64,000 nucleotides of DNA from Turneriella sp. GTDB lineage: Bacteria; Spirochaetota; Leptospiria; Turneriellales; Turneriellaceae. Numbering within the stretch: the first letter of the stretch is position 1; each line of letters opens with the position of its first letter. A program made the position numbers and the translations under genes. Below the pieces are notes generated by a model. The model was not told the origin of the DNA. It worked only from the letters and a program-made list of their open reading frames with translations, and made no database searches. Shown here one piece after another: positions 15,184 to 32,172 of the stretch. Where the stretch lies: the NCBI GenBank assembly GCA_965279515.1, contig CBDIID010000003.1:2656001-2720000 (forward strand). Direction: 5' to 3'.

Positions 15184-15549
15184 TTAGCCACGAAAGATGC
15201 CGGTCTCGTCCGCAAGCCAATGCCTGAAAACAGCATCAAAGCCCTTCTCCGTCTTCGCCGGCACATACCTTCGCCAGGTACGGCTCGCATCCAGACAGTA
15301 GAGCAGCCAAAAGCCGTTGTCGAACTCGAACTTGCCCGAGTCGCGCCGGGTTAATTGGCCGTCTTGTGTGACAAACTCTTCGGAAAGTATCACCGTCTTG
15401 CCCTTCCGTGCCCAGAAGAACCTGCTTGGTATTTCTTCATCATCCGCGGTGTTTTTGCGCTTTTTCTCTACCTGCTTACAATACGCTTCCAGCCGTTTCA
15501 TCGCATCGGCGAAGGCTTCTTTCGGAATTGCGGGCGCGAACAGTTGCAT
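15184..15549 (-). CDS. DUF3024-like protein (copy b)
   Basis: FWLLYCLDASRTWRRY...ADETGIFRG; paralogue of 13621-14058. Confidence 0.75.
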   Translation of the reverse strand: MQLFAPAIPKEAFADAMKRLEAYCKQVEKKRKNTADDEEIPSRFFWARKGKTVILSEEFVTQDGQLTRRDSGKFEFDNGFWLLYCLDASRTWRRYVPAKTEKGFDAVFRHWLADETGIFRG

Positions 15550-15562
15550 GGGTTACCTCTGC

Positions 15563-15829
15563 TTACTTTGGCAGCGGAATCGCCCCGAACTGCTTCTCAT
15601 ACCCCGCCATCTGCTCTGTCAGAATCTTGCCCAGCATCAGCGCCGTCTGCGGGCTCAGCCGCAGGTTGAGTGCGCCCTTGAGCTCGTTTTTCGAGCTCAC
15701 CAGCATGGCGCCGAGTTCGACTTCGAAAGCGTTGACGTTCACCTGAACTGTGTTCGCGTAGAATTCGGGGATGGGTTGGGCGGGGGGGTGGGGTTCGTGG
15801 TCGGTTTTGCGGCGTTTGGGAGTACTCAT
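15563..15829 (-). CDS. DUF3467-like protein (copy b)
   Basis: Near-identical to 14079-14348. Confidence 0.75.
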   Translation of the reverse strand: MSTPKRRKTDHEPHPPAQPIPEFYANTVQVNVNAFEVELGAMLVSSKNELKGALNLRLSPQTALMLGKILTEQMAGYEKQFGAIPLPK

Positions 15830-15841
15830 CCTGCTTACTTT

Positions 15842-16411
15842 TTATTTTCCTTTTGTTTTGGCGGCTTTGCCCGTTGCCTTCGGCCCAGTTTCAGCGGCAG
15901 CCATGACGATCACAGGCTTTAGATCTGCATCCTGTGTAGGCCAATCGCCGATAGGCCAAGCAATGATCGGGAGAATAGGCACAATAACACCTAGGATTAC
16001 CATACCAACACTTAAGGATTTTTCAGGCACTTCAAAATTTAATTTTGTGGTCTTATTTTCTTCTATGTCAACTGCGAAGAGATAATTTGCGTAAACGTAT
16101 CTGTAGCCAATCCGAAACGGTCTCGAAATTTCCCGGCGCACCTGAAGAATTAACTGGCGTTTACCCGCTTTCATAGGGATCTTATATGCTTCATCATCGC
16201 CGAAGCCATCTTTAATCAGCGCTTCACCGTCGGCATGCAATAAGACCTGCCATTTCTCATCGTAACCGTCGATCTGTTTCCCATTAGGAAGTTTGATTTC
16301 CAGCATGCCGTGCGGCTGTGCTGTGATTGCCTTTTGTTTTTCCTCCGACATGCGGTAGGTAGCGCATTGTAGCATGGTTAGACCTGCTATTAAGATCAGA
16401 AACTTCTTCAT
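15842..16411 (-). CDS. hypothetical lipoprotein with C-terminal hydrophobic segment
   Basis: MKKFLILIAGLTMLQC lipobox-like N-terminus; GGAG SD. Confidence 0.75.
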   Translation of the reverse strand: MKKFLILIAGLTMLQCATYRMSEEKQKAITAQPHGMLEIKLPNGKQIDGYDEKWQVLLHADGEALIKDGFGDDEAYKIPMKAGKRQLILQVRREISRPFRIGYRYVYANYLFAVDIEENKTTKLNFEVPEKSLSVGMVILGVIVPILPIIAWPIGDWPTQDADLKPVIVMAAAETGPKATGKAAKTKGK

Positions 16412-16453
16412 CTAATTCTCCGTTGGTTTGTATATTTGTATCTTATGATACCG

Positions 16454-16645
16454 TTAGGTTTGGGCTGGCATCAGACGCAGGTTCAGTGCGCCCTTGAGCT
16501 CGTTTTTGGAGCTCACCAGCATGGCGCTGAGTTCGACTTCGAAGGCGTTGACGTTCACCTGGATCGTGTTCGCGTAGAATTCGGGGATTTGTTGCGCGGG
16601 TGGTTGCGGCTCGTGATCGGTTTTGCGGCGTTTGGGGGTGCTCAT
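16454..16645 (-). pseudogene. truncated DUF3467-like protein (copy c)
   Basis: Matches copies a and b through ...GALNLRL, then diverges and stops, losing the C-terminal helix of about 30 aa. Confidence 0.75.
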
Positions 16646-16675
16646 GCTTATTTTTTTCCTTTCTTATTTCGAAAA

Positions 16676-16879
16676 TTATTCAGGGAATACATAGTTTTTT
16701 ATTTTAGGTTCCAGTGCTTTTTTTACATTCTCTGGATTTTCCTCGTATGCTATAAATTTATGTCCTTTTTCTCTTAGGAATTTTATTACTTTCTTTCGCG
16801 CCGCATAGTGCTCCCGCATACGGGGTTTTTTCTGTTGCATTTCTTCACCGTTCGGCCATTTGAATTTCATGATTTTCAA
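16676..16879 (-). CDS. small basic hypothetical protein or gene fragment
   Basis: 67-aa AT-rich ORF overlapping the upstream ORF. Confidence 0.4.
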   Translation of the reverse strand: MKIMKFKWPNGEEMQQKKPRMREHYAARKKVIKFLREKGHKFIAYEENPENVKKALEPKIKNYVFPE

Positions 16880-17285
16880 TTAGAAAATTCAAGGAATGTT
16901 TGAATTTCTCCGTCTGGTCCAAGCCAAACGCCTTATAGTTAAGCTTAATTTGCAGATTCCAAAATACTCGATCGCTCATGCACACCGATGCCGTTAAAGG
17001 GAAAGTGATGGAGACACCCGTCACCGCCGCCGTCGAGCGAAACATGGATTTTCTCACGTTAGTTTCTGTTTCTGGCACACCACAGGATAGCGAAATCAGC
17101 TGCGACTGGGGTTGCTGCACATATAATTCAGTTTCAACGTCTTGCACAATGAATTGACGAAAATCTGACCCCCTACGTAACCATTTAATCATATGGGAAA
17201 TTGAATCAGCAGATTCAAAACCGGTAATCTCTACAACATGATTAGCGTGTTGGGAAATAATTTGGGTGACTTTTGAGTTATTCAA
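16845..17285 (-). CDS. hypothetical protein (possible orphan immunity protein)
   Basis: 146-aa AT-rich ORF; TTG start with GGAGGG SD; follows the immunity candidate. Confidence 0.6.
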   Translation of the reverse strand: MNNSKVTQIISQHANHVVEITGFESADSISHMIKWLRRGSDFRQFIVQDVETELYVQQPQSQLISLSCGVPETETNVRKSMFRSTAAVTGVSITFPLTASVCMSDRVFWNLQIKLNYKAFGLDQTEKFKHSLNFLIENHEIQMAER

Positions 17286-17308
17286 TGAAAACCCTCCGAT
17301 TTCCTTAA

Positions 17309-17653
17309 CTACATGATCCGTGGGACTCCGGGGACCCTATCTGCGTGATTTTCTCCCATAAGGATAAGGTCAAAGCTGAATTCCATTTCCTCGGCTGTCT
17401 TCTTTAAGAAATCAGTTTCTCCTGAAAAATACGGCGCCTCCGCATTTAGTACCTTTATCATGCTGCGAATCTCATTCAACGCAGCTTTAGGTATGAGCTT
17501 TTCGGATTGCAACATGACCGTCAATGTTTTAATTCCCAGCAGAATATTTTGGAGTAAATGCCTATCAACAGCTTTCCCTATCTGAAGTTTCGTTAAAGCT
17601 TCTCTCATCTTACTGCTGACAACAAACCATTCCTTTTCAAATTCTAAGCTCAT
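17309..17653 (-). CDS. putative cognate immunity protein
   Basis: 114-aa helical protein whose ATG overlaps the toxin stop (ATGA); AT-rich like the toxin tip. Confidence 0.7.
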   Translation of the reverse strand: MSLEFEKEWFVVSSKMREALTKLQIGKAVDRHLLQNILLGIKTLTVMLQSEKLIPKAALNEIRSMIKVLNAEAPYFSGETDFLKKTAEEMEFSFDLILMGENHADRVPGVPRIM

Positions 17654-20600
17654 TTTGGTCTAATGACTTCCTTGATAGCTGCTTTTGGTATAGTTTGGTA
17701 AATAGTAACTTCTCTTGAAAAAAGCGAGCGCCAAAATGGAATCGCTTCTTTACCTTTATTCAAAGTTGCTGGAGCATGTTTCCAAAGTTCTACTTGGAAG
17801 GAAGGAACTTTATTGAGATTAATAACGGCAATACCATTTCCACTTTGATATGCCTCAGCAACTTCCAATGACCTTGTCGTAGATATCCAAGGACTATTTG
17901 CCGCTGCACCACCAGATCCCGGACCTGTATTTGCTATGTGCTCCGCAGCTGTCCAAGTCCCTTTAGGTGCCTTAGCTGTTAAATCGACTCCGGCGGTCAA
18001 AGCAGCATCATCTGCTGAATTCAAAGCTCTGTAGGCCAAGTTCTCGGTAGTCCTTGCTGAATTTAGCCAAGAGCTTACTCCTTTGGCTAGGCCAGGCAAT
18101 GCACCCACAAGCTGTGCTGCTGACGGTGCACCCGGTGAAAAATCAATAGCACCAGCAACAGCTGCTTGTGCTTTTGGATAATCGTTTGGAATTAGCCCCT
18201 TTGCAACGGCCTCACCCGTGCTGGGCATATAGTCGAAGTCACCTTTAGCAGCGTGGTACAGATTATAAATGTTAGCACCCGCATTATTGAGTGCCACACT
18301 CGCAGCTACATTACTTGCCCAAGCCATGCCTAAAGTCGAACCACCTGTTGGCGCAGCCGCAGCACCATACGCTCCCATATTGATGAAATTTGCAGCAAAG
18401 GCGAGTGCATTTCCGCCTAGAGCCAGCGCTTGCGAACGGACGTATTCGTTGCGCATTTCAGCCTGGATTAATGGGACTTGGTCAGCTTCCGCCTGCGCAC
18501 GCCGCTGAGCTACATATTTGGCGTTTTTCGGGTCTGCATCAAAAGCCATATTAGCCCGCATCAACCCTAAGTAGCTTAAATCAACACCACCGACGCCAGC
18601 CATATTGGCATACCCGTTGCGCTGCTGGCCCTCAGCCGCCCTCTGCGCCCTTATCGGTGCATACTTCTTATCCGTCTGACTGGTATACTCACCCGCACCC
18701 GCCGGCATTGCGATCGTGCCGCCCTGCGACATCTTCGCCTTCAGCTCTGCTCTAGCCACCTCATAGGCGGCCGGGTCGCTGGGGTCGAGGGTCGGGTTGT
18801 TGGCCTTGACGTACAAGGCTTCGACTTGCGCCGGCGTCAGTTTGTGCTGCGCGGCCAGTGTGTTCATAAAGCCGCCGAAGTCTTTCGTCGGTACCAGCTT
18901 CAGGGCCTTGTTCGTGCCCGCCTCGATATTGTTCGCGACCTGTTGCTTAGAGATTTCCTTAACATCCGCATCCGACAGAATACCGCTCTTCAGCATCTGG
19001 TTGATTTGCCCGATGTTCTCCGCATCCATCTTGGCTTTGCCGAAATAGTTGCGCGCAATCGTTACCGGATCATCCACACCGGCAGATCCGCCGGAACCAC
19101 CGCCGCCACTGGCAGCTTTCGCTCCGCCGCCCGCGCCGCCCATGCTCGATTCGGCTTCTTCTTCCTTACGACGCATCACCGCTCTCGCAAGGGCGCCCAT
19201 CATCTCCTGCGGCATCTGGCCGCTGCCGTCTTTGGCTGCCTGCCGTGCCGCATCGACGGCCTTGTTCTCTTCCATGCGCATGTTCACCACGCGACCCAAA
19301 ATACCGCCCATCGCTGAAAAGCCGTTCGTGTTCTGGTAGGTAGAGATGAAGTTATTCGTCGCCTGGCTGTCGTTCATCATCGCGCCCACCAGAGTCGTCG
19401 TCACCGCATTCGCCAGCTTGCCGATCTCTGAAGACAACATCTGTTTTCTGATTTCACCGGAATAGGTCGACTTGCTTTCCGTTTGACCCGGATTGATACT
19501 ATTCGTCGCCCATGCGCTGGCAAGGGAGCCCGCTGCCGAAGCTACGCTGAAACCAGAAATACCGCCCGAATCAAAGCGCATGCCGTCGCCAATGGCGTCA
19601 AAACCGGCAGAGATCACCTTGCCCCAATCGCCACCCGCAGCACTGCCCAGAGCTTCACCGGCAAACGACATCGCGCCAGAGAAGAGCGCCTGCGCGCCGC
19701 CGCCCTTCGACCAGTTGCCCTTGAAATCCAGATTCAATGAACCATCCGCATTCTGGCCGATGCCCGCACGCACGACACCCATCGCACCCCGTATCGCTGT
19801 CCCGGCGATACCGCCGCCAACCGCTGCGCCACCGAACGCCATCCCAAAATCAATGGCGCCCATCGCCAATGAGCCGCCCACATCGCGTCCCGAAGAGATT
19901 GCGGCGCCGGTAGAGGCTGTGGCCTGCGCCGCCGCGATCGTCAGCATCACACCGACGTTGCCTGTTGCAGCTGCGGCAAGGCCCGCAGTCAGGCCAATCG
20001 CGGCGTTCCAACCGCCTTGATAAGCGGCCAGGCGCTTTTCTTCATAATGCAGCCCGCGGTAAGTCTTATCATTGTGCATGTCCCCGCCGGTCCAGCCACC
20101 CAACTCGCCAAAACCGTGGTCTTTCGGATCGCCCTCGTCGTCGAATTCAGGCGCTTTACCAACCCATTCGCCGTAGAGGCCCTTTTTCGATCTGTCACCG
20201 CCCACGATCTTGAACGCCTGCTCCAGCGCCATCGTCTGCACTTCAAAGAAAAGTTTTACATCCACATCGCGGCCATTCTGCAAGAAATTCACCATTTCTT
20301 CGCCCGACATGATTGTCATGCCGGCTTCTTTCATACCCCGGTTCATGATCGCGTCTACATCTGCATGGGCATATGCACTGAATGAATAATTGCCGCCAAA
20401 CGCCCAGCCCATGTCTTTCTGGTACCAACCACCCGACTCACGGTAGTTCGCCAGCGTCGCCGCCGTCGTCAGCGCCGTCGTCACATTATCGTCGTTCTTG
20501 CGCAAGCCATCCTTGAAATCCTCGATCATCTTCTTCATGCTCTCATAGAGTTTGACGTTATTGAGGATAGCCATCTTCTTGGAGAACGTCTCCATGTTGC

Positions 20601-23600
20601 TGGCAAAATCGCCTTCCAGCGTTGAGGAGTTAAAACCCTTGAAGTGTGTTGCATTGCCGAGTTCCAGCGTTACATTGAAAGCGCTGATCGATTTATTGAT
20701 TTCTCCGAAAATCCGCTGATCCGAAGGCTTATTGCGCTCGAAATCCGCCATTGCCGCCTGCACCAGGTCGGTGACATTCACCTCAGGCACATCGACGGGA
20801 ATGCTAATATCGGAGCTCAGCGCCCTTAAACGGTCGTTGAGCGCCGAACCGGTCGCACCCAGCATACGCTCCAGAGAACTCTCCATTGCGGCGCTCTTGA
20901 TCTCTTCCTGCCAGTTTTGTTTCGAGACAAGGAAGGTCTTGATCTTGTCGTCCCATTGTTTCTTACCCGCTTCGATCTTCCTGTTGGTGTCGATCTCCCA
21001 CTGCCGCCACGCCTTCAAAAATTTCTGCTCCGAAGCGCCGAAACTTTCTGTGCCGCGGCTTTCAATCGTTGTCGCCAGATTCTCCCACCGAGCCCGCGCC
21101 GCGTCGAGTTCGGCCTTGCGTAAATCCCACTGTTGCGTTACGAGCGAAGCGTTCTGCTGCTGCTGTGTCTGAAATACATTCGTTGAATTTTCAGAGTAGT
21201 CGCCTGCCATAATCTGGAAACCCTTGAACTCTTTGCCCTCTGCGTCGGCATAATCCCAGATCGTATCCATCGTCTTTTCACGCTCGTTCAGCATCAGCGT
21301 CTGTTCATGCGCGTTGCCGGCATTTAGATAACTCTGCTTAAGCTGCGCGCGTAAGACGTCGGAGTCGTTAGAAACCAGGTTCAAGACCCGGCCTAAATCG
21401 TACGTATCCCACGCCCCACCCAGGGCAATCGGAGCCGTAATGTATTTCGCGTATGTGTCCGTCATCTGGCCGACATGATTCATCTGTTTGATTTTGACGT
21501 ACTTTTCGCCATTCAACCAGTAAAAGCCGCCCTGCAAAGTGGATTCCAGGTTCTGCGTGGTAATCTGCGAAGGATCATAGAGATCGCCTGCGGCAGTCGC
21601 GAACTCTGGCGCTTCGGTCAAAGAAGTGACGTTAGTTGCCCGGCCGGCATCGTTGGCGCAATTGCCCGTCGGTGGGCACTGCTGGCCGGCAGTGTACGCG
21701 ACACCCGTGGATGCCATGTACGCCTGCTTATCATCCTTCACATAGCGCAGATCGATATCTGAAAGCGTGTATATTTTCTCCGTCACCGCAACCATTTGGA
21801 GGCTGACCGGATCCAGAACCTGCCGCACGATAGTATTCTGGCCGCCCCATTGTACCAACCGGTCTTTCAAGACCTGTTGGCTTGGGGCCTTTGTGAAGTA
21901 ATCGACCGCAGCCTGAGCGGCTAAGTACTCTTCTTCGGTTCGCTTAATTGTATTGAGTTTATTTACGATCTGATCGCGCTGGCTGTTGACGTTATCCCCA
22001 GAACTGTTCATATCGCGCGTCTTGTTGTCGTTATCGATTGTTGCGGGAATGATCATGCCAAGGCCGGCAGCCATAAACGCCGCACCCCAACCCCAATGCA
22101 TGCTACCCAAAGCCGCTAAAGCCGGTGCAGCCCAGGCACCGAAAAAACTCGCAGCTGCCGCCGCTGCAGAGCCGAAAAAGCCGCTGGCAGCACCAAACAT
22201 AATTGCGCCCGAAACCAACATTGGGCCACCCACAGCCCAAGCCCAGTTCAGACGGATTACTGATTCATGATAAAGTTCTTTCTTGCGGATAAAATCGTCA
22301 GCTCCGCTCTTAAATGCAGCATAATTGTTAGAGCTGAGATTTCCGTCTTTCACCCGCTGCCTGAATTCATCCAGAAGTGCTTTATCCGCAGGCGACAGAT
22401 TGTTATAATCCGCCTGCGCGCTGCGCCAATCGGAGTCTACAGCCGGTTCGTCGAGTCCCGACTGATCGCTGCGCGAATAGGTGTTGAACCAGATTTTACT
22501 ATCCTGTGAATACGTGTCGTCTATCCACGACATGCCTTTTAATACCGAAGCAAGCCCACCGGGACCGCGCGATGCCAGAATAGCTTGAAAAGTCGCGATC
22601 GATTTATCTCGGTTATAGACCAAAGGCTTGTTCAAGGGATCAGACGGCTGAATCAGATCATCCTTCGCCTTGTTATACGCCGCAAGCTTCAACGCAGCAA
22701 TAGCCTTGCGTTTTTCAATTTCAGCATTCAGAATTTCCTGCGCCTTCTTCACGCGTATCATCCGCTCCGATTCGAGTACGTATTCCTTACGCGCATCGAT
22801 GAAATTCTGGTACGTCGCGCGCATCGCCGTTTCCTGCGCCGTCAGTGGCAGGCCCTGGTCGATCTTCGTGATCAGGTCAGAGAGCTGCGTCAGGGTATCC
22901 TGCGTGCGTACCTCCTCTGCCTTTGCCACCAGTTGCGCCTGCGTCTGGTCATAGCGCTGCTTTGCAGAAAGATACATCTGATACGCGTCCGCCTCGTTAG
23001 CGCTCGATGCCTGCGTCGATGAAGCGAAAAGGTACGCGGTTGTGGCAAAGTCTTTTACCGCAGCCTTTTTCTCATAATCGCTGTTTTCTACCTGGAAATT
23101 TTTGAACCCCGCCGCCATCGCGTTCAGCGCATCGGTGTAGTAGGTGAAGTGCGTTGCATACGCTGCTTTACGCGCTTCCAAGTCCGCGACGGTAGCCTCA
23201 TAATTCTGCCGTGCCCCGTTGGTGACCAAAACCCCCGTCACTGGATCGTAATAACCATTGAGGTCATCCGAAACGCTTTTGAAGGTCTGCGCCAGGAAAT
23301 TACGTGCATTGGAACCCAGAATGACGTCGCGCTGCGCCGCCTCCGCGAGCTTCTGCCTTGAATCGCGTAGTGCGGCGGTGTTCTGCTCGATCTGTTTCTG
23401 CGCACCTAAGAGAACGTTATCTGAAAGTCCTGTTGTGGCATTGTCGTCCAGAAGGCGTGCGTTACGGGTCTGTTTCACATCCGTGAAAGCAGTTTTTAGG
23501 TCTTCAATATTTCCGCCGCTTTTAAAGGCAGTGATAGCGCCCGAAAGCCCTGCCACAATCTGCTGGCGGCCATTCGTTGCTGAGGCTGCATCCGTAACTT

Positions 23601-26600
23601 CGGCCATGGCAAAAATGCTCGCCAGCGACCGGTTCATCGATGAAAGAGCGGTCAGGTAGTTATTCGCCAGATGCTCTTTGTACGCGATTGCCAGATCGCT
23701 GTTGGCTACGGTGTTGACTTTATTAACCTGTTGCTGGTAGAGCGTTTGGCTAACCGAACCATCCGAATAGGTGACCTGATCCGCAGGTGACGTCGAGGCA
23801 TCGCTCTTGAGCAAAGCCGCATAGTTAGCAGGATTACCCCCGGCTGCCGCAAACATCGCTTCGAGCTCAGCGCCCGTATAACCCGAGCCTCCGTTCAGAA
23901 TATTTTGTTTGATTTCCTTACCCTGGAAATAATCGGGCCGGTTCAGTGTAGGTGACGGCTGCGTGTTAGAAACATACTTATTGTAAATTCCCGTCTGCTT
24001 GTCGTTCAGCGTCTGTAAGAACGAACGGAAATCCAAAAACAGCGAGCCGCCCTGCGCTAGCGCTGTAGTACTCGGGTCGCCGCGCAGCGCCGCAAAGTGT
24101 TTCAGGTTGTCGGCAACCGCCAGATTGCGGTTGAAGACACGCCCACGGCTGGTTGTTGTCGCCTGGTTATTTTTCAGTTTCTGGCTGATCGCCTCGGTAA
24201 TGGCGGTGAAATTCGCCTGCGCCATCGTTTCCGCAACTTTGATTTCATAACCGACATCGCTCGCAAACACCGGGTTCGTCAGCGAAGCGTCAGACATCAG
24301 GCGCATGACATGCGTGCGCTCTGCGGTCGCTTCCTGGAGCGTGTTGAAGAATGTCGTCAGGCGGGATTGTTCGGCGGTGAAGAAACCCTTTTCCTGCGTA
24401 TTGAGCTCCGCCGCCATCTTGGCGAAGTCGGCGGCCGTGACGGTCGCGGCACCCAACGTAACGCCGCTGCCGCTGCCCTGCATATACTGGGCGAAAGCTT
24501 TGTAGAACTCGTTGAAATTCTGCGTTGCGGCAGTCCGCAGCGCTGGCGTTGCCAGATGTTCTGCCGCCGCGCGTACGGTCGCTTCTGATTTTGTCAGGTC
24601 GCCATTGAAGAGCGCACTCGACTGTGTCAGGTAAGTCGTGAGTTCCGGTACATAGTCGCTGACAAACTTACTGCTCTGCGCAGAGAACCGGGTCCCCAGC
24701 GCCAGCACATAGTCGTCGAATAATGATTTCTCCGCGGTGCTCAGGCCGTTATAATATGTATTGCTCGCAGAACTCAATGTGCCGCCGGCCGTCTTCTCCC
24801 ACGCGGCCATGAGAAATGCTGCTTCGGCTTTATTGGCAAGTGCCCTTAAAGCAGGGGTCGACTGATCCATGAGCTCATAGCTGGCGCGCTCGACGATCGA
24901 AAGATTAGCGCGGTTAGCGAGTAATCCTTCCTTAGCTACAGTGTCCCCGGCAAACTGCGTTTCCACGGCCTTAGTCAGGCGCAGGTTATAGAGCGCCGCT
25001 GAAGGTGAATCGGCAGCAACTTTGACCGCAAGAGACAGGTCGCTAAAATACGTATTCAACGTTGTACTGACCGTTGCATTCACCATGTAACCGCTTGTCG
25101 AAACCATTTGCGCGATCTGCGCTCCGGTCATAACACCCGGATCCAGTGCCAGGTTTTCAGAAAGTTTTTGTTTCAGGTAAATCGATTTAAGCGCGTCGGC
25201 CCGTGTTCCCGTAATCTCGTTGATATACCCCTTACCTGCGAGCTTGTAGTTGGTAATCGAAGTCAGCGCGGTGGGCAACAAACTATCGGCATTGACTCTT
25301 GCATCACTGGCAAAGGTTGCCGCGCTCATCACACCTGCATAGAGTCCGGGTAGAAACTGATTTAAGTTGCCGTTGCCGGCATTATTGGCGCCGTAATATA
25401 TAAAGGCCCGGCTCCTGAAATCTGCAATTTCGACACTTCCGGAGAGCTGGTCTTTAAGTTCATCGGCGCCGATTTTATAAGCGTCGTCGTTCAAGAACGC
25501 GTCAAAGTAAGTCTTGAAGGCGGTTTGATCCATACCTGCATTCAAGTGCCCTTGCAGATAAGTATCAAACTTGGCCATCAACAGGCGCGTTCTGAACTCC
25601 TTCGCCTCTTTTTTGACGTCGACCTGGTTATTGGCAAGGCTGGGATTTAAATTCGTTCCCAAAGCACCGTGGCGTGCGTGCAGTACAATGTTCGTAAATT
25701 CACTGATAAGATTCGAACCAACGATCGAGGCATCGATTTTGCGGCTGTTAAGATACTGTGCGACAAAACCGGCTGCATCCCTATTGTCGCCGCCGTTCAG
25801 GTAGGCGACCAGCGCCTGGCCGCCGCCGGCTGCGCCACCCGCGTCGAGAAACGTATAAAAATCATTCAGGTAAAAATGCCGTTGCATTTCCTGCGGATGC
25901 CCGGAGAGATCAAGCATCGCTTTGTTCTGCTCGTCGGCAATCGGCGAACTCTTGAGCCTCAGGAACTCCTGATACGCGGCATTGAGATCGTTGTACCCCC
26001 TAAGCAACACAAAATTACGAAGCTCCGCGGGATAACCAGCGGCATTGAAATTGGCGGAATAATGATACTGATTCAGGGCGTCGGTCAGCTCGGTCTGTAG
26101 AGTTAAGTCAGTAAACTTTTGCTTTTCTGTTGCGGATGGGTTAGCCAGGAGTGCGGTAAAATTAGTAAGCTGGCTCTTGAACTGACCGAGCGGCATGCTC
26201 TGGTCCAAGGTCTGCATCAGGTACACTATTTCCGATGCATAGTCCTGTTGCATCACCGGCACATTGGCCGTGTTTTGCATCCACGTGGTGATCATACCCG
26301 CGGCAGAGGCCGTGGTTGTAGCGGCGGAAATGCCGCTTACATAGGCGTCGAAATTGGTACGGAATGTGTCGGCCCGCACTGCCTGCTCGGCGATGAACGT
26401 ATCGATAGAGGCGCCGGCCGTGCCTTTCGCAGCATAGAGATCGCGCGGAGAAAGCGCGTTCAGCTCGTTTCTAACCTGGGTAGCAAATGTGTCGCTGGCC
26501 AGTGCAACCAGCAAATTGCTCTTCAGAATAACCGGATCGCCGTTCGCCGGAAAAGCAGAGAGGATATCCCAGAGTTTTGAGGCATAAATTTCAGACACCC

Positions 26601-29600
26601 CCGGCTGAGATAACGAACCGATTACGGCATTCACCAGGTTCGCGTCCGCTGCTGCATTGCTGATACTGGTCTTCAGTGCATCTGTCTTTAAAACCGATAC
26701 ACCATTCAGGAACTCTGAAACCGAGAGCACTTTGTTTTGCTGGTAGGCGGTCTGTCGTGCCGCAAGAAATTGTTTTTGAATCTGCGCGCTGTAAAGCTGC
26801 TCGCGCACCTGTTTGAGCTGATCTGAAAGGGCAAATAGTTCCGTCAGCGAATCATGGACTGCCGCGTCGGGGCCCACGGCTGCACTACTGAAGAGTGTTA
26901 AGAGTTCCTTATTTTGGGTCTTAGAAAGTTCATTGACCAATGCTGTATAGGCTCCCAGGGGAGAAGTTCCTGTACTGGGATTGTACTTTGACATCGCATC
27001 ATTGACGTTTTGGTACAGCGTTAGAACCTTAGCGATGTTCTTGATGCGCTCTGTTTCCAGCGTCCGCGTTGCGGCCGTATTGCCGTTAATGGTCGCAACG
27101 TCGGAGTCACGATTGGCGATATAAGCCTGTGCGCTCAAATATTCGACGAGCGAGCTTTCAAGCCCGGCAATCGCCTGTTTCAGACTATCAGGTACGTCTT
27201 TTCTCTCGGCCTGTGCGCGGTCGATATATTGCGTCAGGGCACTCACCCAACTTTCGAGGGCCGCGCCGCTTTGATTGCCGCTCAGGAGTACAGAGATATC
27301 CGAATCAACCGTAGGTGCCGGTGTAACTCCGGCTAAGTACGTGTTGACGAAGTTCGCGTTCAGAACGGGTTTACCCGTGCTGTCGCGTAAAATATTGCCG
27401 TAGGCATCTTTTTCGTAAAAGCCGATGACCTGTTTTATGGTATCGGTGAGCCCCTGCTGAGCTGCCGATTGTTCGGCGCGAAAGCTGGCATCTTTAACAC
27501 CAGACCATTCAGAGTTCAGGCGCCGGTAACCTTCTTCTTCTATGCGGTATTGCCACAGCGCATCCTGCACGAAGGGCGCCATCACCAGCGACGAGCCGCG
27601 GGTCAAAATCTCCGAAGCATAGGCGCGCAGTGGATCAATCGTTGTGCGCAGCCCGGCCGCGTCGATATTCAGCTGATTGATATCATTCTGCAGCGTCGTC
27701 TTCGCGTTCGTCTTCTGCGTAATTTCATTATTAATTGCCGTAAGCTCCAGAGCCGTCGCCGTTGACGCCAGGGTATTCAGCTGCGCGATATCGCCGTCGA
27801 TAGTCTGTATTTCCAGATTCTTCGCGGCAATTTGGGTAAATTTAGAAGCAAGGTCGGTTTCATACTTCCGCGCTTCGCGGTCTTTAGCGAGATACTGCTC
27901 CTTTGCCCAGATCGAGCCGTAGTTCAGATTGAGCTTCGACAGCTCCTGCGTCATCGCGTCGCGTACCTGGGTGAGGTCGGCGACCAGATTCGCGGTCGAG
28001 CCTTCATTGACGTAGTGCCCGAGATACGATTGAATGATGAAGCGTGCATCGTCCGCCTGTTCGGGGGTCGGCAAACCATTCAGGTAGTTAGTCAGGGCTG
28101 TCTGCACCGCGGTGGCGCTGCCAGCACCGAGTATGGTGTTGATTTGATTTCTTAAAGTGGTTCTGCTATTATTAAAGCCAGTGACCCAGCTATCTGTTGC
28201 CGATTGGGGCGCCTGTGTGGTTACATCGTGAAAGATTTCATTTTTTTTCTGGTAAAACTGCACCTCCTCAAGGTATTTCTGCCATTTCTGTTCGATTGTT
28301 TGCCCGCCGGGGGGCGGTATCGATGACAGGTTGTCGATGCGGGCTTTGACGTTGGCGTCTGTCAGATAAGCGCGTACGATCCAGAGCTTTTCCAGCGTAA
28401 TATTAAATGTTGTGTCGGTTTTACCTTCAAAGAGACCAAAATCATAGCTTGATCCCGAAACCCAGGAATTTCCGGTATTGCTGCGCGTATTTCCACCCAG
28501 AAGCTGCGCAATCTGGTCGTCGACAGCTTTAAGCAATGTCTCGCTGTTTGCCGTCGCCTGCGCATTCCCGCTGATGACACCACTGATGAGACCTTGAAGG
28601 TGATTCACAGCCGCTTCGTTCAGGCGGTCATACTGGGCATTGGTACGTGTGACCGCATCGCCCACTTCTTTCTGTAACGCACTGGCATTGAGCAGGGCAG
28701 TCTGACCGCCGAGAGTCGATTGTGAGTCGAGAAGATAATCCAGTGCTTCGGAATTAATCTTCTTCTCCATCTTCAGGCTGATGATAAAACCATCGATATT
28801 TTGGCGCAATAACTCCGTCGCAATGAGCAATTCCTTTTCTTTTTGAGCGATTGTTGCCGCATTACCGCCGCCTACCGCGGTTGTTAGCGCGGTTTGTGCT
28901 GCCAAATACGCATTTTTCTGCGCTTCGATACCGTCGAAAAGTTCTATCGTTTTCGTCCAGTTAACGACGCTGCCTGTCCGCTGGATAAGACTTGCTTCCT
29001 GAGCCTTGAAATCCTGCGCGATCTGAGCGATGCTCTTGGTCGCAAACCCAGCTGTTAACATAGTATCAAGCGCGGCGTTTTGGGTACGCGCCGCTTTCAG
29101 GTTATCGATGGCCTGAAGTGCCTTATTCGTAAAGCTGACATCTTTCTGCGCTTCTGTGCGCTCGCGCAGGATGCGGTAATAGTCGAGTTCTGAGGCCGAA
29201 ACTACATCTTTCATTTCTGTAGTCACACCGTTCACAAAGACCATGCGGTTTGTCACAGAGGCGAGCTGCTGCCCCATATTAGAAATTTCCGTGGCAATAA
29301 TCTGCTGTGAATTCGGAAGAGCGATGACGTCGAAATTTTTCTTGGTCTGGCGGTAGATATCCTGCTGCTGATCAAAAGCGGCTTTGGCGCTTGCCACCAC
29401 AAGCGCCTGTGCTTCGATAAGGCTCTTATCCGCCTGTAACTGAGCGCCGAGCTCCGTAAGATTCATCTGTAACGGATTTGCCGGAACCATCGCGTTCTTA
29501 ACGTCTGCGATTTTCTGAGAAAGCTCAGAGAAGCGGTAGTTTCCCTGTAGATCAGTCAGCGACTGAAACAGCGCGCCTGCGGCGGATTTCAGCTGCGCCC

Positions 29601-32172
29601 AGCGCTGCTGTTTTTCCAGAAGGGCATCGCCCGTTAGGCCCACGGTCCATTCATTCTTGAGCTGTATCAGCTTGTCAGAGAATTGCTGCAGGTAATGCAC
29701 ATTCTGGGCATTTCCTGCTGGTGTTGCGGGATTTGTGCCACGCCACTGATCGAAGGCCCCTATCAGGGCGTTTAAATCCGTGCCGACTGTTATAGCACCG
29801 GCGCCCACAACGGTATTCAGCGCCGTCTTCTCTGTCAAAATCTGTCCTTCGCGCGTGTAAATGGTGTTCAGGTCAATGCCACGTGCGGCGAGTATATTTG
29901 TAAACTCCGTATCGCGCGTCGTTGCATTGCTCTTAACGAGAGGGTTCAGCGCGATATCGCCTTTCAGGATTTTATATTTGATTTCTGCGAGATCAGTATA
30001 AACTTTTTGAATATCGGCCGCTTCTTTCGTGATTTGCCCGAGCTCAAGACCCGCACCGGAAGCATTGGCTACGCGCGCATAGTTATAAACGGCTTCCGAT
30101 GTCGCCAGTTGCTGGGCGAGAAAATTACGGCGATTACGCAGAAGCTCCCATTCATATTCTGCCTGTGTCATCAAATAGGGATCGTTATCGTTGCTCGTCA
30201 GGTAATTACCGCCATAAGGCGTATTGAAATAAGCCGTAACGCGGTTAAAGAGCGACTGATCGACATTCAATCCGCTGGTCAGCAGAGACTGCACTTGTGT
30301 TTGCAGTGCGGTTTTCTTCGCGGCTTCGTCGGGGAAATTGGTATTATCCGCATTGATGGTATTCCAGATTTGCTGGATATCCGTCTTAACATTGGCGTGT
30401 TCGTCGCTGTAACTATTGAGCTTTGCCGTTACATCCGCGAAATTATAACCACCGGAAAACCAGGCGCCCAGATCAGCGCCGAGATACTGGCTCGAAACAG
30501 CGTAAAGATCGGCGCGCTGGATTTCACCGCGCAGATCGCGGTCATAGAGCACGTAGGCTTCGGCGAAGGTATCAAGTTTTGTCTGTAGCGCCGATTTAAA
30601 TCCAGAAGGGCCTAAAGCGGCAATCTCTGCCGGAACAGTACCGGCAAATACGCGCTTGTCCACCAGATAACCACTGTCAGGGTTTTGGGATAGCATCGTG
30701 CTTTGCATTTCTGTACGCACCCGGGCCAGCAGGTTATTGAAAGTACCAAGGGCAGTGTTAAAGTAATTAATCTGCTGCTGGTAAAATGTCTTGATTGTTG
30801 TATCTGTCGTATCGGGCATGACTGAGCTGTAGAAAGCTACAGCGTCCTGCGCCTGTGAAAGCGCAGAGCCACCCGTTGTCACCATATCAATCAGCTTGTC
30901 ATTATAGCCATTCCAGCGATCGTTTTCAGAGACAAGCAGGCGTTGAAATTCCGAATCCGCTCTTTGGCGCTCGTCGGCAAACTGTACGTATTTCTGGTCC
31001 CAAAGAGCACGCCCCTGTTGAATCTGCGTCTTGACCTGAGTCATCCATTTTTCTTTTTCTAAGCGGATACGCTCATACTGCGCTTTCCAGATTTCGCCGC
31101 CATCCTTGAGTAATTTCTTTTCTTTGTTGGCCCACTCGATGCGCTTCTCCATCAGGTCTTCTTCAGCGACCTCCCAGGACTTAAGCCCTTGGCTGACAAT
31201 GGCCTCTACCTGGCGCTGCCAATCCTGACCGAGATTATTGATGTCGGCACTTTGCTGCCCCAGAGCGGCATTGACCGCCTGCTGTAACGCCTGCGTCGTC
31301 ATTCCATCGACGCTCTGCCAAGTCTGCTTCAAAAGCTGGTCGGTAAGGTATGCGGCAGACTCTTTCTCTGACTCCGATTTAGCACTGCCCAAGTCTGAGC
31401 GCTTCTCTGCGATATACTGATTGCGTGCGCGGCGGAGATAATAGTTCTGCTTAAGTTCATACTCCGACTTAATCGATGCTTCCACCTTGGCGAGTTCTGC
31501 ATCGAAGGCAGTGCGCTCGGTTCCTGATAGTGCGAGATTTGTTGAGGCAATACGGTTGATCTCTGCGGTTAAAAGAGACTGAAACTGCGTTTCTACCGCT
31601 GCATTGTCGCCCTGAACCGTTGCATCCCAAAGTGCAAGGTTAAGATCGGTGCCCAGAACCGCCGTACGCGCTTTGGTAATAATCTGCCGGTACTTTTCTT
31701 CGTCGACTTCGGCAACGAAAGCGTTGCCAACAATAGCCTTCCACTTACCCCGCTCCGAAATAACCCTGTCAGCCGCCGTGGAAAGCCAGTCGAGTTTTGC
31801 CTGATCGAAAACTGCCTGCGCTGCATTCTTCTGCGCCAGCTTCTGCGCGTCGTCCAGACCGACAGTTTCATCGATGACTTTCTTTTCTGCGTCCAGAGAG
31901 GCCCGCGCTTCGGATTCCCATTGTGCCTCTGAGACACCTAAACCCTGATCGACAAAATTCTGCCACGTAGCTTCCGTCGACAGCGTTTTGCCGCGGTCGA
32001 AGTAATTTTCCATTTGTGTTTTGCCGCGCTCGTCGAAGGTCTTATATTGCGGCGCGGCGGCGAGAGCCGTCGTAAAAGGCATGATGCCGAAAAGATAAAC
32101 AAATACAAAGGTTAGCAGGAAAGACGTAAAACGGAAAAAACTCTCTCCATTCTGGCTACTACGGGAAAACAT
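17650..32172 (-). CDS. giant secreted helical protein with C-terminal ADP-ribosyltransferase-like domain (polymorphic toxin candidate)
   Basis: 4840-aa ORF with AGGAGG SD, signal-peptide-like N-terminus, long coiled-coil body and Gly/Ala hydrophobic segments. C-terminal R-S-E pattern: AYRAL...SPWISTT...SREVTIYQTIPKAAI. Confidence 0.8.
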   Translation of the reverse strand: MFSRSSQNGESFFRFTSFLLTFVFVYLFGIMPFTTALAAAPQYKTFDERGKTQMENYFDRGKTLSTEATWQNFVDQGLGVSEAQWESEARASLDAEKKVIDETVGLDDAQKLAQKNAAQAVFDQAKLDWLSTAADRVISERGKWKAIVGNAFVAEVDEEKYRQIITKARTAVLGTDLNLALWDATVQGDNAAVETQFQSLLTAEINRIASTNLALSGTERTAFDAELAKVEASIKSEYELKQNYYLRRARNQYIAEKRSDLGSAKSESEKESAAYLTDQLLKQTWQSVDGMTTQALQQAVNAALGQQSADINNLGQDWQRQVEAIVSQGLKSWEVAEEDLMEKRIEWANKEKKLLKDGGEIWKAQYERIRLEKEKWMTQVKTQIQQGRALWDQKYVQFADERQRADSEFQRLLVSENDRWNGYNDKLIDMVTTGGSALSQAQDAVAFYSSVMPDTTDTTIKTFYQQQINYFNTALGTFNNLLARVRTEMQSTMLSQNPDSGYLVDKRVFAGTVPAEIAALGPSGFKSALQTKLDTFAEAYVLYDRDLRGEIQRADLYAVSSQYLGADLGAWFSGGYNFADVTAKLNSYSDEHANVKTDIQQIWNTINADNTNFPDEAAKKTALQTQVQSLLTSGLNVDQSLFNRVTAYFNTPYGGNYLTSNDNDPYLMTQAEYEWELLRNRRNFLAQQLATSEAVYNYARVANASGAGLELGQITKEAADIQKVYTDLAEIKYKILKGDIALNPLVKSNATTRDTEFTNILAARGIDLNTIYTREGQILTEKTALNTVVGAGAITVGTDLNALIGAFDQWRGTNPATPAGNAQNVHYLQQFSDKLIQLKNEWTVGLTGDALLEKQQRWAQLKSAAGALFQSLTDLQGNYRFSELSQKIADVKNAMVPANPLQMNLTELGAQLQADKSLIEAQALVVASAKAAFDQQQDIYRQTKKNFDVIALPNSQQIIATEISNMGQQLASVTNRMVFVNGVTTEMKDVVSASELDYYRILRERTEAQKDVSFTNKALQAIDNLKAARTQNAALDTMLTAGFATKSIAQIAQDFKAQEASLIQRTGSVVNWTKTIELFDGIEAQKNAYLAAQTALTTAVGGGNAATIAQKEKELLIATELLRQNIDGFIISLKMEKKINSEALDYLLDSQSTLGGQTALLNASALQKEVGDAVTRTNAQYDRLNEAAVNHLQGLISGVISGNAQATANSETLLKAVDDQIAQLLGGNTRSNTGNSWVSGSSYDFGLFEGKTDTTFNITLEKLWIVRAYLTDANVKARIDNLSSIPPPGGQTIEQKWQKYLEEVQFYQKKNEIFHDVTTQAPQSATDSWVTGFNNSRTTLRNQINTILGAGSATAVQTALTNYLNGLPTPEQADDARFIIQSYLGHYVNEGSTANLVADLTQVRDAMTQELSKLNLNYGSIWAKEQYLAKDREARKYETDLASKFTQIAAKNLEIQTIDGDIAQLNTLASTATALELTAINNEITQKTNAKTTLQNDINQLNIDAAGLRTTIDPLRAYASEILTRGSSLVMAPFVQDALWQYRIEEEGYRRLNSEWSGVKDASFRAEQSAAQQGLTDTIKQVIGFYEKDAYGNILRDSTGKPVLNANFVNTYLAGVTPAPTVDSDISVLLSGNQSGAALESWVSALTQYIDRAQAERKDVPDSLKQAIAGLESSLVEYLSAQAYIANRDSDVATINGNTAATRTLETERIKNIAKVLTLYQNVNDAMSKYNPSTGTSPLGAYTALVNELSKTQNKELLTLFSSAAVGPDAAVHDSLTELFALSDQLKQVREQLYSAQIQKQFLAARQTAYQQNKVLSVSEFLNGVSVLKTDALKTSISNAAADANLVNAVIGSLSQPGVSEIYASKLWDILSAFPANGDPVILKSNLLVALASDTFATQVRNELNALSPRDLYAAKGTAGASIDTFIAEQAVRADTFRTNFDAYVSGISAATTTASAAGMITTWMQNTANVPVMQQDYASEIVYLMQTLDQSMPLGQFKSQLTNFTALLANPSATEKQKFTDLTLQTELTDALNQYHYSANFNAAGYPAELRNFVLLRGYNDLNAAYQEFLRLKSSPIADEQNKAMLDLSGHPQEMQRHFYLNDFYTFLDAGGAAGGGQALVAYLNGGDNRDAAGFVAQYLNSRKIDASIVGSNLISEFTNIVLHARHGALGTNLNPSLANNQVDVKKEAKEFRTRLLMAKFDTYLQGHLNAGMDQTAFKTYFDAFLNDDAYKIGADELKDQLSGSVEIADFRSRAFIYYGANNAGNGNLNQFLPGLYAGVMSAATFASDARVNADSLLPTALTSITNYKLAGKGYINEITGTRADALKSIYLKQKLSENLALDPGVMTGAQIAQMVSTSGYMVNATVSTTLNTYFSDLSLAVKVAADSPSAALYNLRLTKAVETQFAGDTVAKEGLLANRANLSIVERASYELMDQSTPALRALANKAEAAFLMAAWEKTAGGTLSSASNTYYNGLSTAEKSLFDDYVLALGTRFSAQSSKFVSDYVPELTTYLTQSSALFNGDLTKSEATVRAAAEHLATPALRTAATQNFNEFYKAFAQYMQGSGSGVTLGAATVTAADFAKMAAELNTQEKGFFTAEQSRLTTFFNTLQEATAERTHVMRLMSDASLTNPVFASDVGYEIKVAETMAQANFTAITEAISQKLKNNQATTTSRGRVFNRNLAVADNLKHFAALRGDPSTTALAQGGSLFLDFRSFLQTLNDKQTGIYNKYVSNTQPSPTLNRPDYFQGKEIKQNILNGGSGYTGAELEAMFAAAGGNPANYAALLKSDASTSPADQVTYSDGSVSQTLYQQQVNKVNTVANSDLAIAYKEHLANNYLTALSSMNRSLASIFAMAEVTDAASATNGRQQIVAGLSGAITAFKSGGNIEDLKTAFTDVKQTRNARLLDDNATTGLSDNVLLGAQKQIEQNTAALRDSRQKLAEAAQRDVILGSNARNFLAQTFKSVSDDLNGYYDPVTGVLVTNGARQNYEATVADLEARKAAYATHFTYYTDALNAMAAGFKNFQVENSDYEKKAAVKDFATTAYLFASSTQASSANEADAYQMYLSAKQRYDQTQAQLVAKAEEVRTQDTLTQLSDLITKIDQGLPLTAQETAMRATYQNFIDARKEYVLESERMIRVKKAQEILNAEIEKRKAIAALKLAAYNKAKDDLIQPSDPLNKPLVYNRDKSIATFQAILASRGPGGLASVLKGMSWIDDTYSQDSKIWFNTYSRSDQSGLDEPAVDSDWRSAQADYNNLSPADKALLDEFRQRVKDGNLSSNNYAAFKSGADDFIRKKELYHESVIRLNWAWAVGGPMLVSGAIMFGAASGFFGSAAAAAASFFGAWAAPALAALGSMHWGWGAAFMAAGLGMIIPATIDNDNKTRDMNSSGDNVNSQRDQIVNKLNTIKRTEEEYLAAQAAVDYFTKAPSQQVLKDRLVQWGGQNTIVRQVLDPVSLQMVAVTEKIYTLSDIDLRYVKDDKQAYMASTGVAYTAGQQCPPTGNCANDAGRATNVTSLTEAPEFATAAGDLYDPSQITTQNLESTLQGGFYWLNGEKYVKIKQMNHVGQMTDTYAKYITAPIALGGAWDTYDLGRVLNLVSNDSDVLRAQLKQSYLNAGNAHEQTLMLNEREKTMDTIWDYADAEGKEFKGFQIMAGDYSENSTNVFQTQQQQNASLVTQQWDLRKAELDAARARWENLATTIESRGTESFGASEQKFLKAWRQWEIDTNRKIEAGKKQWDDKIKTFLVSKQNWQEEIKSAAMESSLERMLGATGSALNDRLRALSSDISIPVDVPEVNVTDLVQAAMADFERNKPSDQRIFGEINKSISAFNVTLELGNATHFKGFNSSTLEGDFASNMETFSKKMAILNNVKLYESMKKMIEDFKDGLRKNDDNVTTALTTAATLANYRESGGWYQKDMGWAFGGNYSFSAYAHADVDAIMNRGMKEAGMTIMSGEEMVNFLQNGRDVDVKLFFEVQTMALEQAFKIVGGDRSKKGLYGEWVGKAPEFDDEGDPKDHGFGELGGWTGGDMHNDKTYRGLHYEEKRLAAYQGGWNAAIGLTAGLAAAATGNVGVMLTIAAAQATASTGAAISSGRDVGGSLAMGAIDFGMAFGGAAVGGGIAGTAIRGAMGVVRAGIGQNADGSLNLDFKGNWSKGGGAQALFSGAMSFAGEALGSAAGGDWGKVISAGFDAIGDGMRFDSGGISGFSVASAAGSLASAWATNSINPGQTESKSTYSGEIRKQMLSSEIGKLANAVTTTLVGAMMNDSQATNNFISTYQNTNGFSAMGGILGRVVNMRMEENKAVDAARQAAKDGSGQMPQEMMGALARAVMRRKEEEAESSMGGAGGGAKAASGGGGSGGSAGVDDPVTIARNYFGKAKMDAENIGQINQMLKSGILSDADVKEISKQQVANNIEAGTNKALKLVPTKDFGGFMNTLAAQHKLTPAQVEALYVKANNPTLDPSDPAAYEVARAELKAKMSQGGTIAMPAGAGEYTSQTDKKYAPIRAQRAAEGQQRNGYANMAGVGGVDLSYLGLMRANMAFDADPKNAKYVAQRRAQAEADQVPLIQAEMRNEYVRSQALALGGNALAFAANFINMGAYGAAAAPTGGSTLGMAWASNVAASVALNNAGANIYNLYHAAKGDFDYMPSTGEAVAKGLIPNDYPKAQAAVAGAIDFSPGAPSAAQLVGALPGLAKGVSSWLNSARTTENLAYRALNSADDAALTAGVDLTAKAPKGTWTAAEHIANTGPGSGGAAANSPWISTTRSLEVAEAYQSGNGIAVINLNKVPSFQVELWKHAPATLNKGKEAIPFWRSLFSREVTIYQTIPKAAIKEVIRPK

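Follow-up and report, generated by a model that had tools for sequence, protein, structure and literature searches.

The subject of this analysis is a window of 64,000 nucleotides (nt) from Turneriella sp. (assembly GCA_965279515.1, contig CBDIID010000003.1, positions 2,656,001 to 2,720,000 of the forward strand), in which the minus strand carries a giant open reading frame (ORF), P0001, and, overlapping its end, a gene of 114 amino acids (aa), P0002; the pair is considered here as a candidate polymorphic toxin with its immunity gene. Coordinates count from the first letter of the window and are collected in the table below. The host genome comprises 4.9 Mb in three contigs, with a GC content of 53%. 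An earlier note, drawn up from the letters alone, had described a 14.5-kb ORF of 4840 aa, and this was borne out: the frame (17650..32172, minus strand) starts with ATG and holds 4840 codons and a stop. An intact frame of this length, together with intact relatives, is not attributable to chance, and the ORF is therefore regarded as genuine. The ATG of the 114-aa gene overlaps the TGA of the giant as ATGA (ccaaaATGAgc), just as had been claimed. The whole giant was scanned against Pfam with matches reported down to E<=1, and no Rhs/YD, Fil_haemagg, TPS, VgrG/PAAR or RTX match was obtained, in agreement with the remark in the earlier note that Rhs/YD, filamentous haemagglutinin (FHA), VgrG/PAAR and RTX repeats were missing; the sole match was a weak one to DUF7587 at residues 4758-4835. 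Scans of the giant against NCBIfam and PHROG (E<=0.01) gave no match, and the NCBIfam scan of its relatives and of the 114-aa protein gave none either.

Table. Features of the giant gene and its surroundings in the window (ART, ADP-ribosyltransferase; GC3, GC content at third codon positions)
Feature	Position	Strand	Remarks
Giant gene P0001, probable polymorphic toxin	17650..32172	-	4840 aa + stop; relatives P0004 (paralogue in the same genome), P0005, G001, G008
N-terminal hydrophobic segment, signal peptide or signal-anchor	32044..32130	-	residues 15-43; uncharged, Kyte-Doolittle peak 1.98
Conserved N-terminal helical domain, carrier-family signature	30703..32043	-	residues ~44-490; 24% identity to sister-family giants
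Long helical body without known domain	22252..30702	-	residues 491-3307; no Pfam/NCBIfam/PHROG match; 60-96% identical to paralogue
Uncharged Gly/Ala/Trp-rich stretch of 72 residues, likely 2-3 membrane helices	22036..22251	-	residues 3308-3379
Distal conserved module ending ..YRGLH.EE.RL	20032..22035	-	residues 3380-4047; alignment of five giants
Gly/Ala-rich hydrophobic region, 19% Gly, closing in RR.E motif	19168..20031	-	residues 4048-4335; two subtypes in relatives
Pre-toxin segment common to some relatives with other tips	18643..19167	-	residues 4336-4510
Linker and 63-residue uncharged Ala-rich stretch (4580-4642); low-GC3 cassette start	18058..18642	-	residues 4511-4705
Predicted ART toxin domain	17653..18057	-	residues 4706-4840; AF2, structural matches and profile match to 9zdm_B
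R4715	18028-18030	-	key residue of ART tip, codon checked
H4745	17938-17940	-	key residue of ART tip, codon checked
S4764-T-T	17875-17883	-	key motif of ART tip, codons checked
Y4775	17848-17850	-	key residue of ART tip, codon checked
E4821	17710-17712	-	key residue of ART tip, codon checked
Putative cognate immunity gene P0002	17309..17653	-	114 aa; no signal peptide; conserved C-terminal tail DRVPGVPRI
Low-GC island	16400..18200		38-45% vs 53% in the window; tip, immunity gene and ~900 nt downstream

The giant's C-terminal end (the tip) was modelled with AlphaFold2 (AF2) from an alignment of 48 sequences, and the model was confident (predicted local distance difference test (pLDDT), 90.5; predicted template modelling score (pTM), 0.81). 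Comparison of the model by VIA-align against 48,161 chains placed TreX first (8s2m_B; Z 11.4, root-mean-square deviation 2.6 A, 108 residues aligned), followed by scabin (Z 10.0), pertussis S1 (Z 9.9) and then EcPltA, LT, CARDS toxin and pierisin. Nine of the ten chains with Z >= 8 are ARTs by title, the title of the tenth (9ld3_A) mentioning only ADPR, and among the matches listed by Foldseek all are ARTs by title, with weak E-values (best, 3.1e-3). An ART had been proposed for this region with structure prediction as the check, and on the predicted model the last 135 residues are an ART fold with a split beta-sheet, of the R-S-E clade. The motifs that had been read by eye, Y4714-R4715, S4764-T-T and R4820-E4821, are all present, in the order R4715, S4764-T-T, E4821. 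In the 48-sequence alignment R25 (R4715) is invariant, and Y24, H55, T75 and E131 (Y4714, H4745, T4765 and E4821) are at least 90% conserved; the ranges aligned between the tip model (21-150) and the pertussis S1 chain (5-148) are consistent with R9 and E129 of S1.

The profile of 48 tip homologues was searched against PDB sequences and matched a single solved chain, 9zdm_B (RhsF-CT; E 3.4e-15, chain residues 6-119 of 126). In the available part of its description, 9ZDM is the complex of RhsF-CT with RhsFi from Chromobacterium violaceum, RNA is ADP-ribosylated in vitro by RhsF-CT, and a triad R-Y-E is proposed (PMC13324451). The accessible text on TreThr, given there as the same domain as RhsF-CT, reports that charged tRNAThr(GGU) is modified and that the variants R1403A and E1497A are no longer toxic, and proposes RhsF Y1456, at S1445+11, as the third catalytic residue (PMC13617354; R-Y-E also in PMC13324451). 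In the giant, Y4775 lies at S4764+11, and the aligned tyrosine was seen in both the profile and the single-sequence alignments to 9zdm_B; at the position 11 residues after the S-T motif the consensus is F in the wider tip family and Y in the close subfamily. The tip submitted alone (199 aa) also matched DUF7587 (PF24494) with 29.1 bits (E 1.3e-6), against 23.9 bits for the whole protein and a gathering cut-off of 27 bits, the match spanning profile positions 59-139 of 146 only. By the profile match to 9zdm_B and the spacing of the tyrosine, the tip is a divergent member of the RhsF-CT/TreThr family. The cholera/pertussis-type signature noticed earlier thus stood as far as an R-S-E ART is concerned and fell as an affiliation, the nearest characterised relative being RhsF-CT/TreThr and not those toxins. 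Since this relative is directed at RNA or tRNA, RNA or tRNA would by extrapolation be the most likely target of the tip.

ART-fold Rhs tips acting as NADases exist (Tne2, Tne5), and the tip could by analogy be an NAD(P)+ glycohydrolase that kills by NAD depletion, with no macromolecular target. Tne2 does occur in the structural list, at Z 4.6, and hydrolysis and transfer are not told apart by any computation made here; of the sequence relatives with data, the nearest one (RhsF-CT/TreThr) nevertheless transfers ADP-ribose to RNA in the available accounts, and TreX, scabin and pertussis S1, named as transferases in PDB titles or in the RhsF papers, stand far above Tne2. A pure NADase is for these reasons judged unlikely, and the tip is treated below as a transferase.

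For the distribution of the tip, its last 150 residues were searched by phmmer against 1.84 billion representative proteins, which yielded 162 proteins at a threshold of E<=1e-3, of which 99 also passed E<=1e-10. Among the 150 of these 162 matches that were listed, 124 reach at least residue 135 of the tip, and 113 of the 124 end no more than 15 aa from the C-terminus of their own protein. Pfam analysis of 22 long carriers revealed RHS repeats in 14 (in some with SpvB/TcdB domains), Fil_haemagg_2 in three (one of them also with TPS), DUF6443 only in two, LPD22 in one, DUF7587 only in one, and no domain in one. Because the domain ends Rhs and CdiA-like carriers, it is, as far as homology tells, a toxin module that moves among classical polymorphic toxins and sits at their C-terminus. 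Within the class of the host the module is rare (2 of 190 genomes, many of them covered in part), the second case, G044, having a different carrier, and in the host genome neither the tip nor the immunity gene has a second copy. The G044 frame (L075, G044:C44:40251-43700; 2511 aa) ends in a more RhsF-CT-like ART tip (..VYRVL..FISTT..AEVLI..), its carrier looks Rhs-type by eye from YxPYGE-like motifs, and it is followed by an unrelated 117-aa ORF, with no P0002-like gene after the tip.

A word-index search with the P0002 protein returned one relative. Species-representative genomes were then scanned with a 12-sequence tip alignment, and 19 loci were obtained, including ones in Rugamonas, Burkholderia, Sphingomonas, Stenotrophomonas, Ralstonia, Serratia, Massilia, Cupriavidus, Erwinia, Enterobacter, Lonsdalea, a metagenome-assembled genome (MAG) of Acidobacteriota and others. 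Ten of the 19 carry an evident P0002 homologue of 110-114 aa that starts 3 nt before, or at, the toxin stop. With a hidden Markov model built from these ten homologues, 17 of the 19 loci proved to have a P0002-family ORF immediately behind the tip, in most cases overlapping it by the same 4 nt, and the other two are partial tip matches. The coupling of the small gene to the tip, which had been claimed from this one locus, therefore persists across unrelated carriers. The family shares an invariant C-terminal motif, G-E..D....P-R, and its profile gave nothing credible against Pfam and PDB sequences.

The complex of the tip and the 114-aa protein was predicted in three runs with scores of 0.66, 0.00 and 0.63 (median, 0.63; best control, 0.01), the mark used for such scores being reached by 116 of 157 solved complexes vs 2 of 215 mismatched pairs. 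The pLDDT of the partners in the predicted complex was 75-93. On the immunity side the predicted interface consists of helix 87-101 and tail 106-114, and on the tip side of residues 47-53, 60-64, 68, 71, 102-109 and 135-136; it adjoins the conserved H55 and S-T-T of the tip. The prediction supports binding of the tip by the 114-aa protein, and the gene is, from its sequence and position, the putative cognate immunity gene of the ART tip.

A protein-modifying ART of the cholera/pertussis type, possibly acting against a eukaryote and not against bacteria, would agree with the high structural ranks (Z 8-10) of pertussis S1, LT, cholera toxin and EcPltA and with the positions of R, H, S-T-T and E, which fit the pattern of that clade. 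A small cytoplasmic gene coupled in 17 of 19 loci and carriers of Rhs and CdiA type are, however, the antibacterial layout, no B-subunit or receptor-binding partner was found at the locus, and the only match at sequence level in the PDB is the RNA-directed RhsF-CT; this reading is considered quite improbable, and an antibacterial tip, RNA-directed by extrapolation, is preferred.

The carrier was compared among close relatives. A paralogue of 4790 aa, P0004, lies ~210 kb away in the same genome, outside the window (G000:C3:2449659-2464031, minus strand), and is 86% identical to P0001 across the first 1500 residues; the final ~700 have no relationship to P0001, show a C..H..D-like pattern by eye, and are followed by an overlapping ORF of 375 aa with a lipoprotein-like N-terminus. 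Another assembly contains a relative of 4860 aa (P0005), and two genomes of the same genus contain 5'-truncated copies. The three full-length relatives share 60-96% identity as far as residue ~4040 and less than 30% past ~4115. In an alignment of five giants the body ends with ..YRGLH.EE.RL (~4045), a Gly/Ala-rich region in two subtypes ends with RR.E (~4335), and from there on the C-terminal regions, of ~500 residues each, are unrelated. That of the G008 giant contains a PT-HINT domain (E 3.4e-22), which was also found in the G036 giant; the G008 locus holds an orphan fragment corresponding to about residues 3400-4040 (61-76% identity, running off the contig), and the G036 locus an orphan PT-HINT fragment. 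No orphan cassette was found in the window. Every relative examined has its own distinct downstream gene, and an all-vs-all comparison of the tips of 26 giants revealed only two related pairs, which are also the only two pairs with a downstream ORF in common.

The combination proposed beforehand as a check on the toxin reading, a conserved body whose C-termini and downstream genes vary, was thus found: relatives with C-terminal domains and downstream genes of unrelated kinds have the giant body in common as their carrier. In the terms of a polymorphic toxin system in the sense of Zhang et al. 2012 (PMC3482391), variable C-termini, a covarying immunity gene, and a pre-toxin domain and orphans were observed, the latter two in relatives only.

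The borders of the exchanged part were located by composition and divergence. GC3 is 0.29 over the tip codons 4706-4840 vs 0.60 over codons 1-4000, and the drop begins near codons 4560-4620, where values of 0.57-0.80 fall to 0.43 and then to 0.22-0.38 (0.43-0.35 over codons 4561-4680). The earlier statement that the tip is more AT-rich than the body is accordingly correct in itself and too narrow in extent, the low-GC tract beginning earlier and running on to about nt 16400. Two partial MAG proteins, P0157 (80% identity) and P0158 (68%), align with P0001 only to ~4510 and then diverge, close to the GC3 break, and the G001 giant shares residues ~4380-4500 with P0001. The divergence at ~4510 and the GC3 break indicate that the imported cassette exceeds 135 residues; by these criteria it is some 250-330 residues plus the immunity gene, with a start near residue 4510-4600. 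The tip is hence exchangeable, as had been suggested, and larger than the ~135 aa originally outlined, with relatives diverging from 4045-4335 on. P0157 is a partial protein of 1242 aa whose source is labelled a Bacteroidota MAG and which is 80% identical to residues 3606-4510 of the giant; its contig is probably mis-binned. The C-termini of P0157, P0158, L055 and L064 consist of long Gly/Ala-rich uncharged stretches with no enzyme-like domain and may be membrane-acting tips (pore or ionophore).

Residues 15-43 of the giant are hydrophobic, without charge and closed by ALAAAP, so that the signal-peptide-like N-terminus of the earlier note is indeed there. In sister-family giants the equivalent segment is preceded by 50-250 mostly basic residues, which suggests an uncleaved signal-anchor in those class-level relatives. 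Uncharged stretches occur at residues 3308-3379, 4048-4095 and 4580-4642, and counterparts of the first are present in P0004, P0005 and the G036 giant. In the AF2 model of residues 1-1200 every secondary-structure element is helical, with pLDDT 53.6 and pTM 0.28 overall and pLDDT 70-87 for residues ~50-250; the mostly helical body described before is thus reproduced, in a model of low confidence. Searches of the ESM Atlas gave no usable match for residues 1-2000 and scores of only 0.78-0.81, under the lead level of 0.9, for residues 3380-4340.

The long helical body with internal hydrophobic Gly-rich stretches would also suit a carrier derived from a phage tape-measure-like or injection-machine protein, some relatives do end in an M23 peptidase, and two weak ESM Atlas look-alikes are viral clusters (0.79 and 0.78, again below 0.9). 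Such an origin is hardly credible in view of the lack of any PHROG match of P0001 at E<=0.01, the lack of a VipB/TssC sheath gene in the genome, for which the E. coli control was positive, and the Pfam content of the neighbouring ORFs (8985-16777 and 32387-44887), in which only housekeeping or unknown families and none of phage were recorded. To our knowledge the length of the giant is also far beyond that of any tape measure.

Residues 1 to ~490 of the giant align with a 4210-aa protein of a sister family in the same class (24% identity, E 7.7e-24), which has the same layout, running from an N-terminal membrane segment through a hydrophobic stretch in mid-protein and a Gly-rich one to PT-HINT and a terminal domain. 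A profile of this N-terminal domain matched 79 of 190 genomes of the class, in open frames of ~3500-5100 aa and with up to seven matches per genome, and in a sample of 301 genomes from across Spirochaetota it had matches at E<=1e-5 in 66, those outside the class reaching E 2.6e-58 in frames of 2000-3900 aa. Where kinship with very large Leptospira proteins had been considered possible, a distant relationship was found, through the N-terminal ~490 aa, to giants of this sister family; the carrier family is phylum-wide and not restricted to genomes of the Leptospira type. In G038, G110, G116 and other sister-family genomes there are in addition many ORFs of ~2000-3200 aa, several per genome, that align with the N-terminal profile over no more than its first ~140-240 positions (E 1e-8 to 1e-13) and may, to judge from these partial alignments, form a second large-protein family with the same N-terminal piece.

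The C-termini of the carrier family were surveyed with Pfam, using the last 650 residues of 20 giants in the class. PT-HINT was detected in four, one of which also has Peptidase_M23, the sole M23 case of the 20, and there were single cases of Ntox30, UPF0102 and Peptidase_C39_2; among nine complete giants outside the class two end in M23 and seven have no Pfam match. The occurrence of the N-terminal domain in 66 of 301 genomes of the phylum, often in several copies, the many C-termini with no recognised toxin domain, and the lack of a secretion partner beside the giants would be natural if the giant were chiefly a structural or envelope protein, to which the ART and the small gene had been added as a captured toxin-antitoxin-like element acting inside the producer. 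That proposal leaves a recombination-swapped C-terminus unexplained, the C-termini and downstream genes change jointly on a constant body, and delivered polymorphic toxins are characteristically marked by PT-HINT, Ntox30, M23 and orphan cassettes; it is held to be very improbable, and a delivered toxin is the preferred reading of the giant.

Several results weigh against that preferred reading. PT-HINT is absent from P0001 and from the whole host genome. As a single sequence the tip matches 9zdm_B at just E 0.0077, so that a shared target is an extrapolation within a divergent family. No relative of the P0002 family turned up in Pfam or among PDB sequences, so that by sequence it shows no detectable similarity to RhsFi. 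One of the three predictions of the complex scored 0.00, and the predicted structure of the body is of low confidence. With 12 of the 20 class-level C-termini and seven of the nine outside the class lacking a Pfam match, a toxin role may not hold across the whole carrier family. Lastly, at the loci compared no partner gene is conserved beside the giants, and none upstream.

With these points included, the giant and the 114-aa gene are likely to be an interbacterial polymorphic toxin with its immunity gene. Using NAD+, the tip would ADP-ribosylate a target that is essential in the cytoplasm of a neighbouring bacterium and is most probably RNA or tRNA, with R4715, E4821 and Y4775 or S4764 as candidate catalytic residues, and the cytoplasmic 114-aa protein would shield the producer, its conserved C-terminal tail binding beside the active-site cleft. 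The route of delivery is more speculative. The carrier might leave by Sec using its N-terminal hydrophobic segment and extend as a long helical stalk, and the Gly/Ala-rich stretches (3308-3379, 4048-4335 and 4580-4642) might enter the outer membrane of the producer or the membranes of the target and pass the tip across; this route as a whole is offered as a doubtful proposal. Relatives bearing PT-HINT might cut their own tip free, and in P0001, which has no PT-HINT, release of the tip, if any, would take another route.

It is likewise only tentatively suggested, and is rather unlikely to hold in full, that Spirochaetota possess a toxin-delivery class of their own, consisting of an N-terminally anchored protein of 2000-5100 aa in which a helical stalk of several thousand residues and two or three Gly-rich modules for membrane insertion would bring exchangeable toxins into neighbouring cells. 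In such a class cell-wall-hydrolase-like tips would act in the periplasm and RNA-directed ART tips in the cytoplasm, with no machinery of secretion types V, VI or VII (T5/T6/T7). If true, this would be a fourth architecture of contact-dependent antagonism and would give a function to unexplained giant genes of Leptospira-type genomes. If the carrier delivers tips, some of the largest unexplained genes of spirochetes would gain a role within a new delivery architecture, and a catalogue of new toxin and immunity domains would open up, 19 of the 29 C-termini scanned having no Pfam match. The tip and immunity pair would add to the RNA-directed ART toxins, and the locus joins a toxin-immunity module of a biochemically studied family to a phylum-wide giant carrier. 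The pair belongs to a known family, and the carrier class is essentially undescribed: the literature, as far as its accessible text goes, does not describe the giant carrier save for a remark on LA_3725, and the additional files of PMC3482391 might list spirochete giants. A literature search returned no paper on how spirochetes fight neighbouring bacteria.

The remaining genes around the giant were annotated as follows. A few genes downstream of the giant are small ORFs with DUF3024 (15184-15549, minus strand) and DUF3467 (15563-15829, minus strand). Relatives of the former recur downstream of the G008 giant and, in two copies with 89% identity for one of them, downstream of the paralogue P0004, and a relative of the latter, 89% identical, lies downstream of the G001 giant; these ORFs could be accessory or immunity-type genes. 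The same-strand gene run is closed by a 238-aa ankyrin-repeat protein (14356-15072, minus strand), and ankyrin proteins are tabulated as the immunity type Imm-ank in the accessible part of PMC3482391. Between 15842 and 17285, in or beside the low-GC island, are ORFs of 146 aa (TTG start), 113 aa (plus strand) and 189 aa, none with a Pfam match and the last also with no PHROG match; the 146-aa and 189-aa ORFs have no similarity to the giants. Upstream are a class A penicillin-binding protein two genes from the giant (33649-35958) and a flagellar export block (39397-44887, minus strand) of FlhB, FlhA, an SRP54-type FlhF-like GTPase and a MinD/ParA-type ATPase, all of which look like ordinary housekeeping genes. 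FlaA (PF04620) gave two matches over the cut-off in the host genome and none in 14 control genomes, which marks the host as a spirochete.

When set beside known systems, the locus resembles TreX-TriX of Xenorhabdus bovienii (PDB 8S2M) in pairing a C-terminal ART, there of Rhs type, with an immunity protein, and TreX is the best structural match; the identity in the structural alignment is, however, 12%, with no match at sequence level. With CdiA and Rhs/YD proteins it shares a very large carrier with a conserved body and a delimited, variable toxin at the C-terminus, an immunity gene that comes right behind, orphan C-terminal fragments, and the same tip family, which is found on both. Unlike them, the giant has no TPS, FHA or YD repeats, PAAR or VgrG, and has instead a helical body with internal hydrophobic stretches, as the earlier note had judged in calling it unlike CdiA or Rhs. 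P0001 gave no match to PF05860 or PF13332 at E<=1 among CdiA and two-partner features and none to PF05593 among Rhs features. No ShlB-type (TpsB) partner was matched in the host genome, the control genomes being likewise silent, and no type VI secretion system (T6SS) sheath VipB/TssC was found there, with a positive E. coli control. The TANFOR-domain polymorphic toxins of Bacteroidetes are reportedly a precedent for a phylum-specific N-terminal domain that defines a large toxin class; their domain and phylum are unrelated to those of the giant.

LA_3725 of L. interrogans is, in the available part of its account, a large protein with one N-terminal transmembrane segment and PT-HINT near the C-terminus (PMC4751964). 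Compared by that description, the sister-family giants related to P0001 have the same layout, and P0001 differs in ending with an ART tip and in lacking PT-HINT.

The closest comparison is that with RhsF-CT/TreThr. Y-R, S-T-T, the +11 aromatic residue and Q/R-E-V succeed one another in the same order and at the same spacing, and a small immunity gene lies directly downstream in both. A model in the accessible text of PMC13617354 has the C-terminal helix of the immunity protein blocking the catalytic cleft of TreThr, and blockage of the active-site entrance by the C-terminal part of the immunity protein, modelled or seen there, is predicted here. The tip of the giant differs in an extra Gly-rich loop, GPGSGGAAAN, the immunity families are unrelated by sequence, and RhsF-CT ends an Rhs protein that is linked to the T6SS and has a FIX domain, where the tip of the giant ends a helical protein of 4700 aa.

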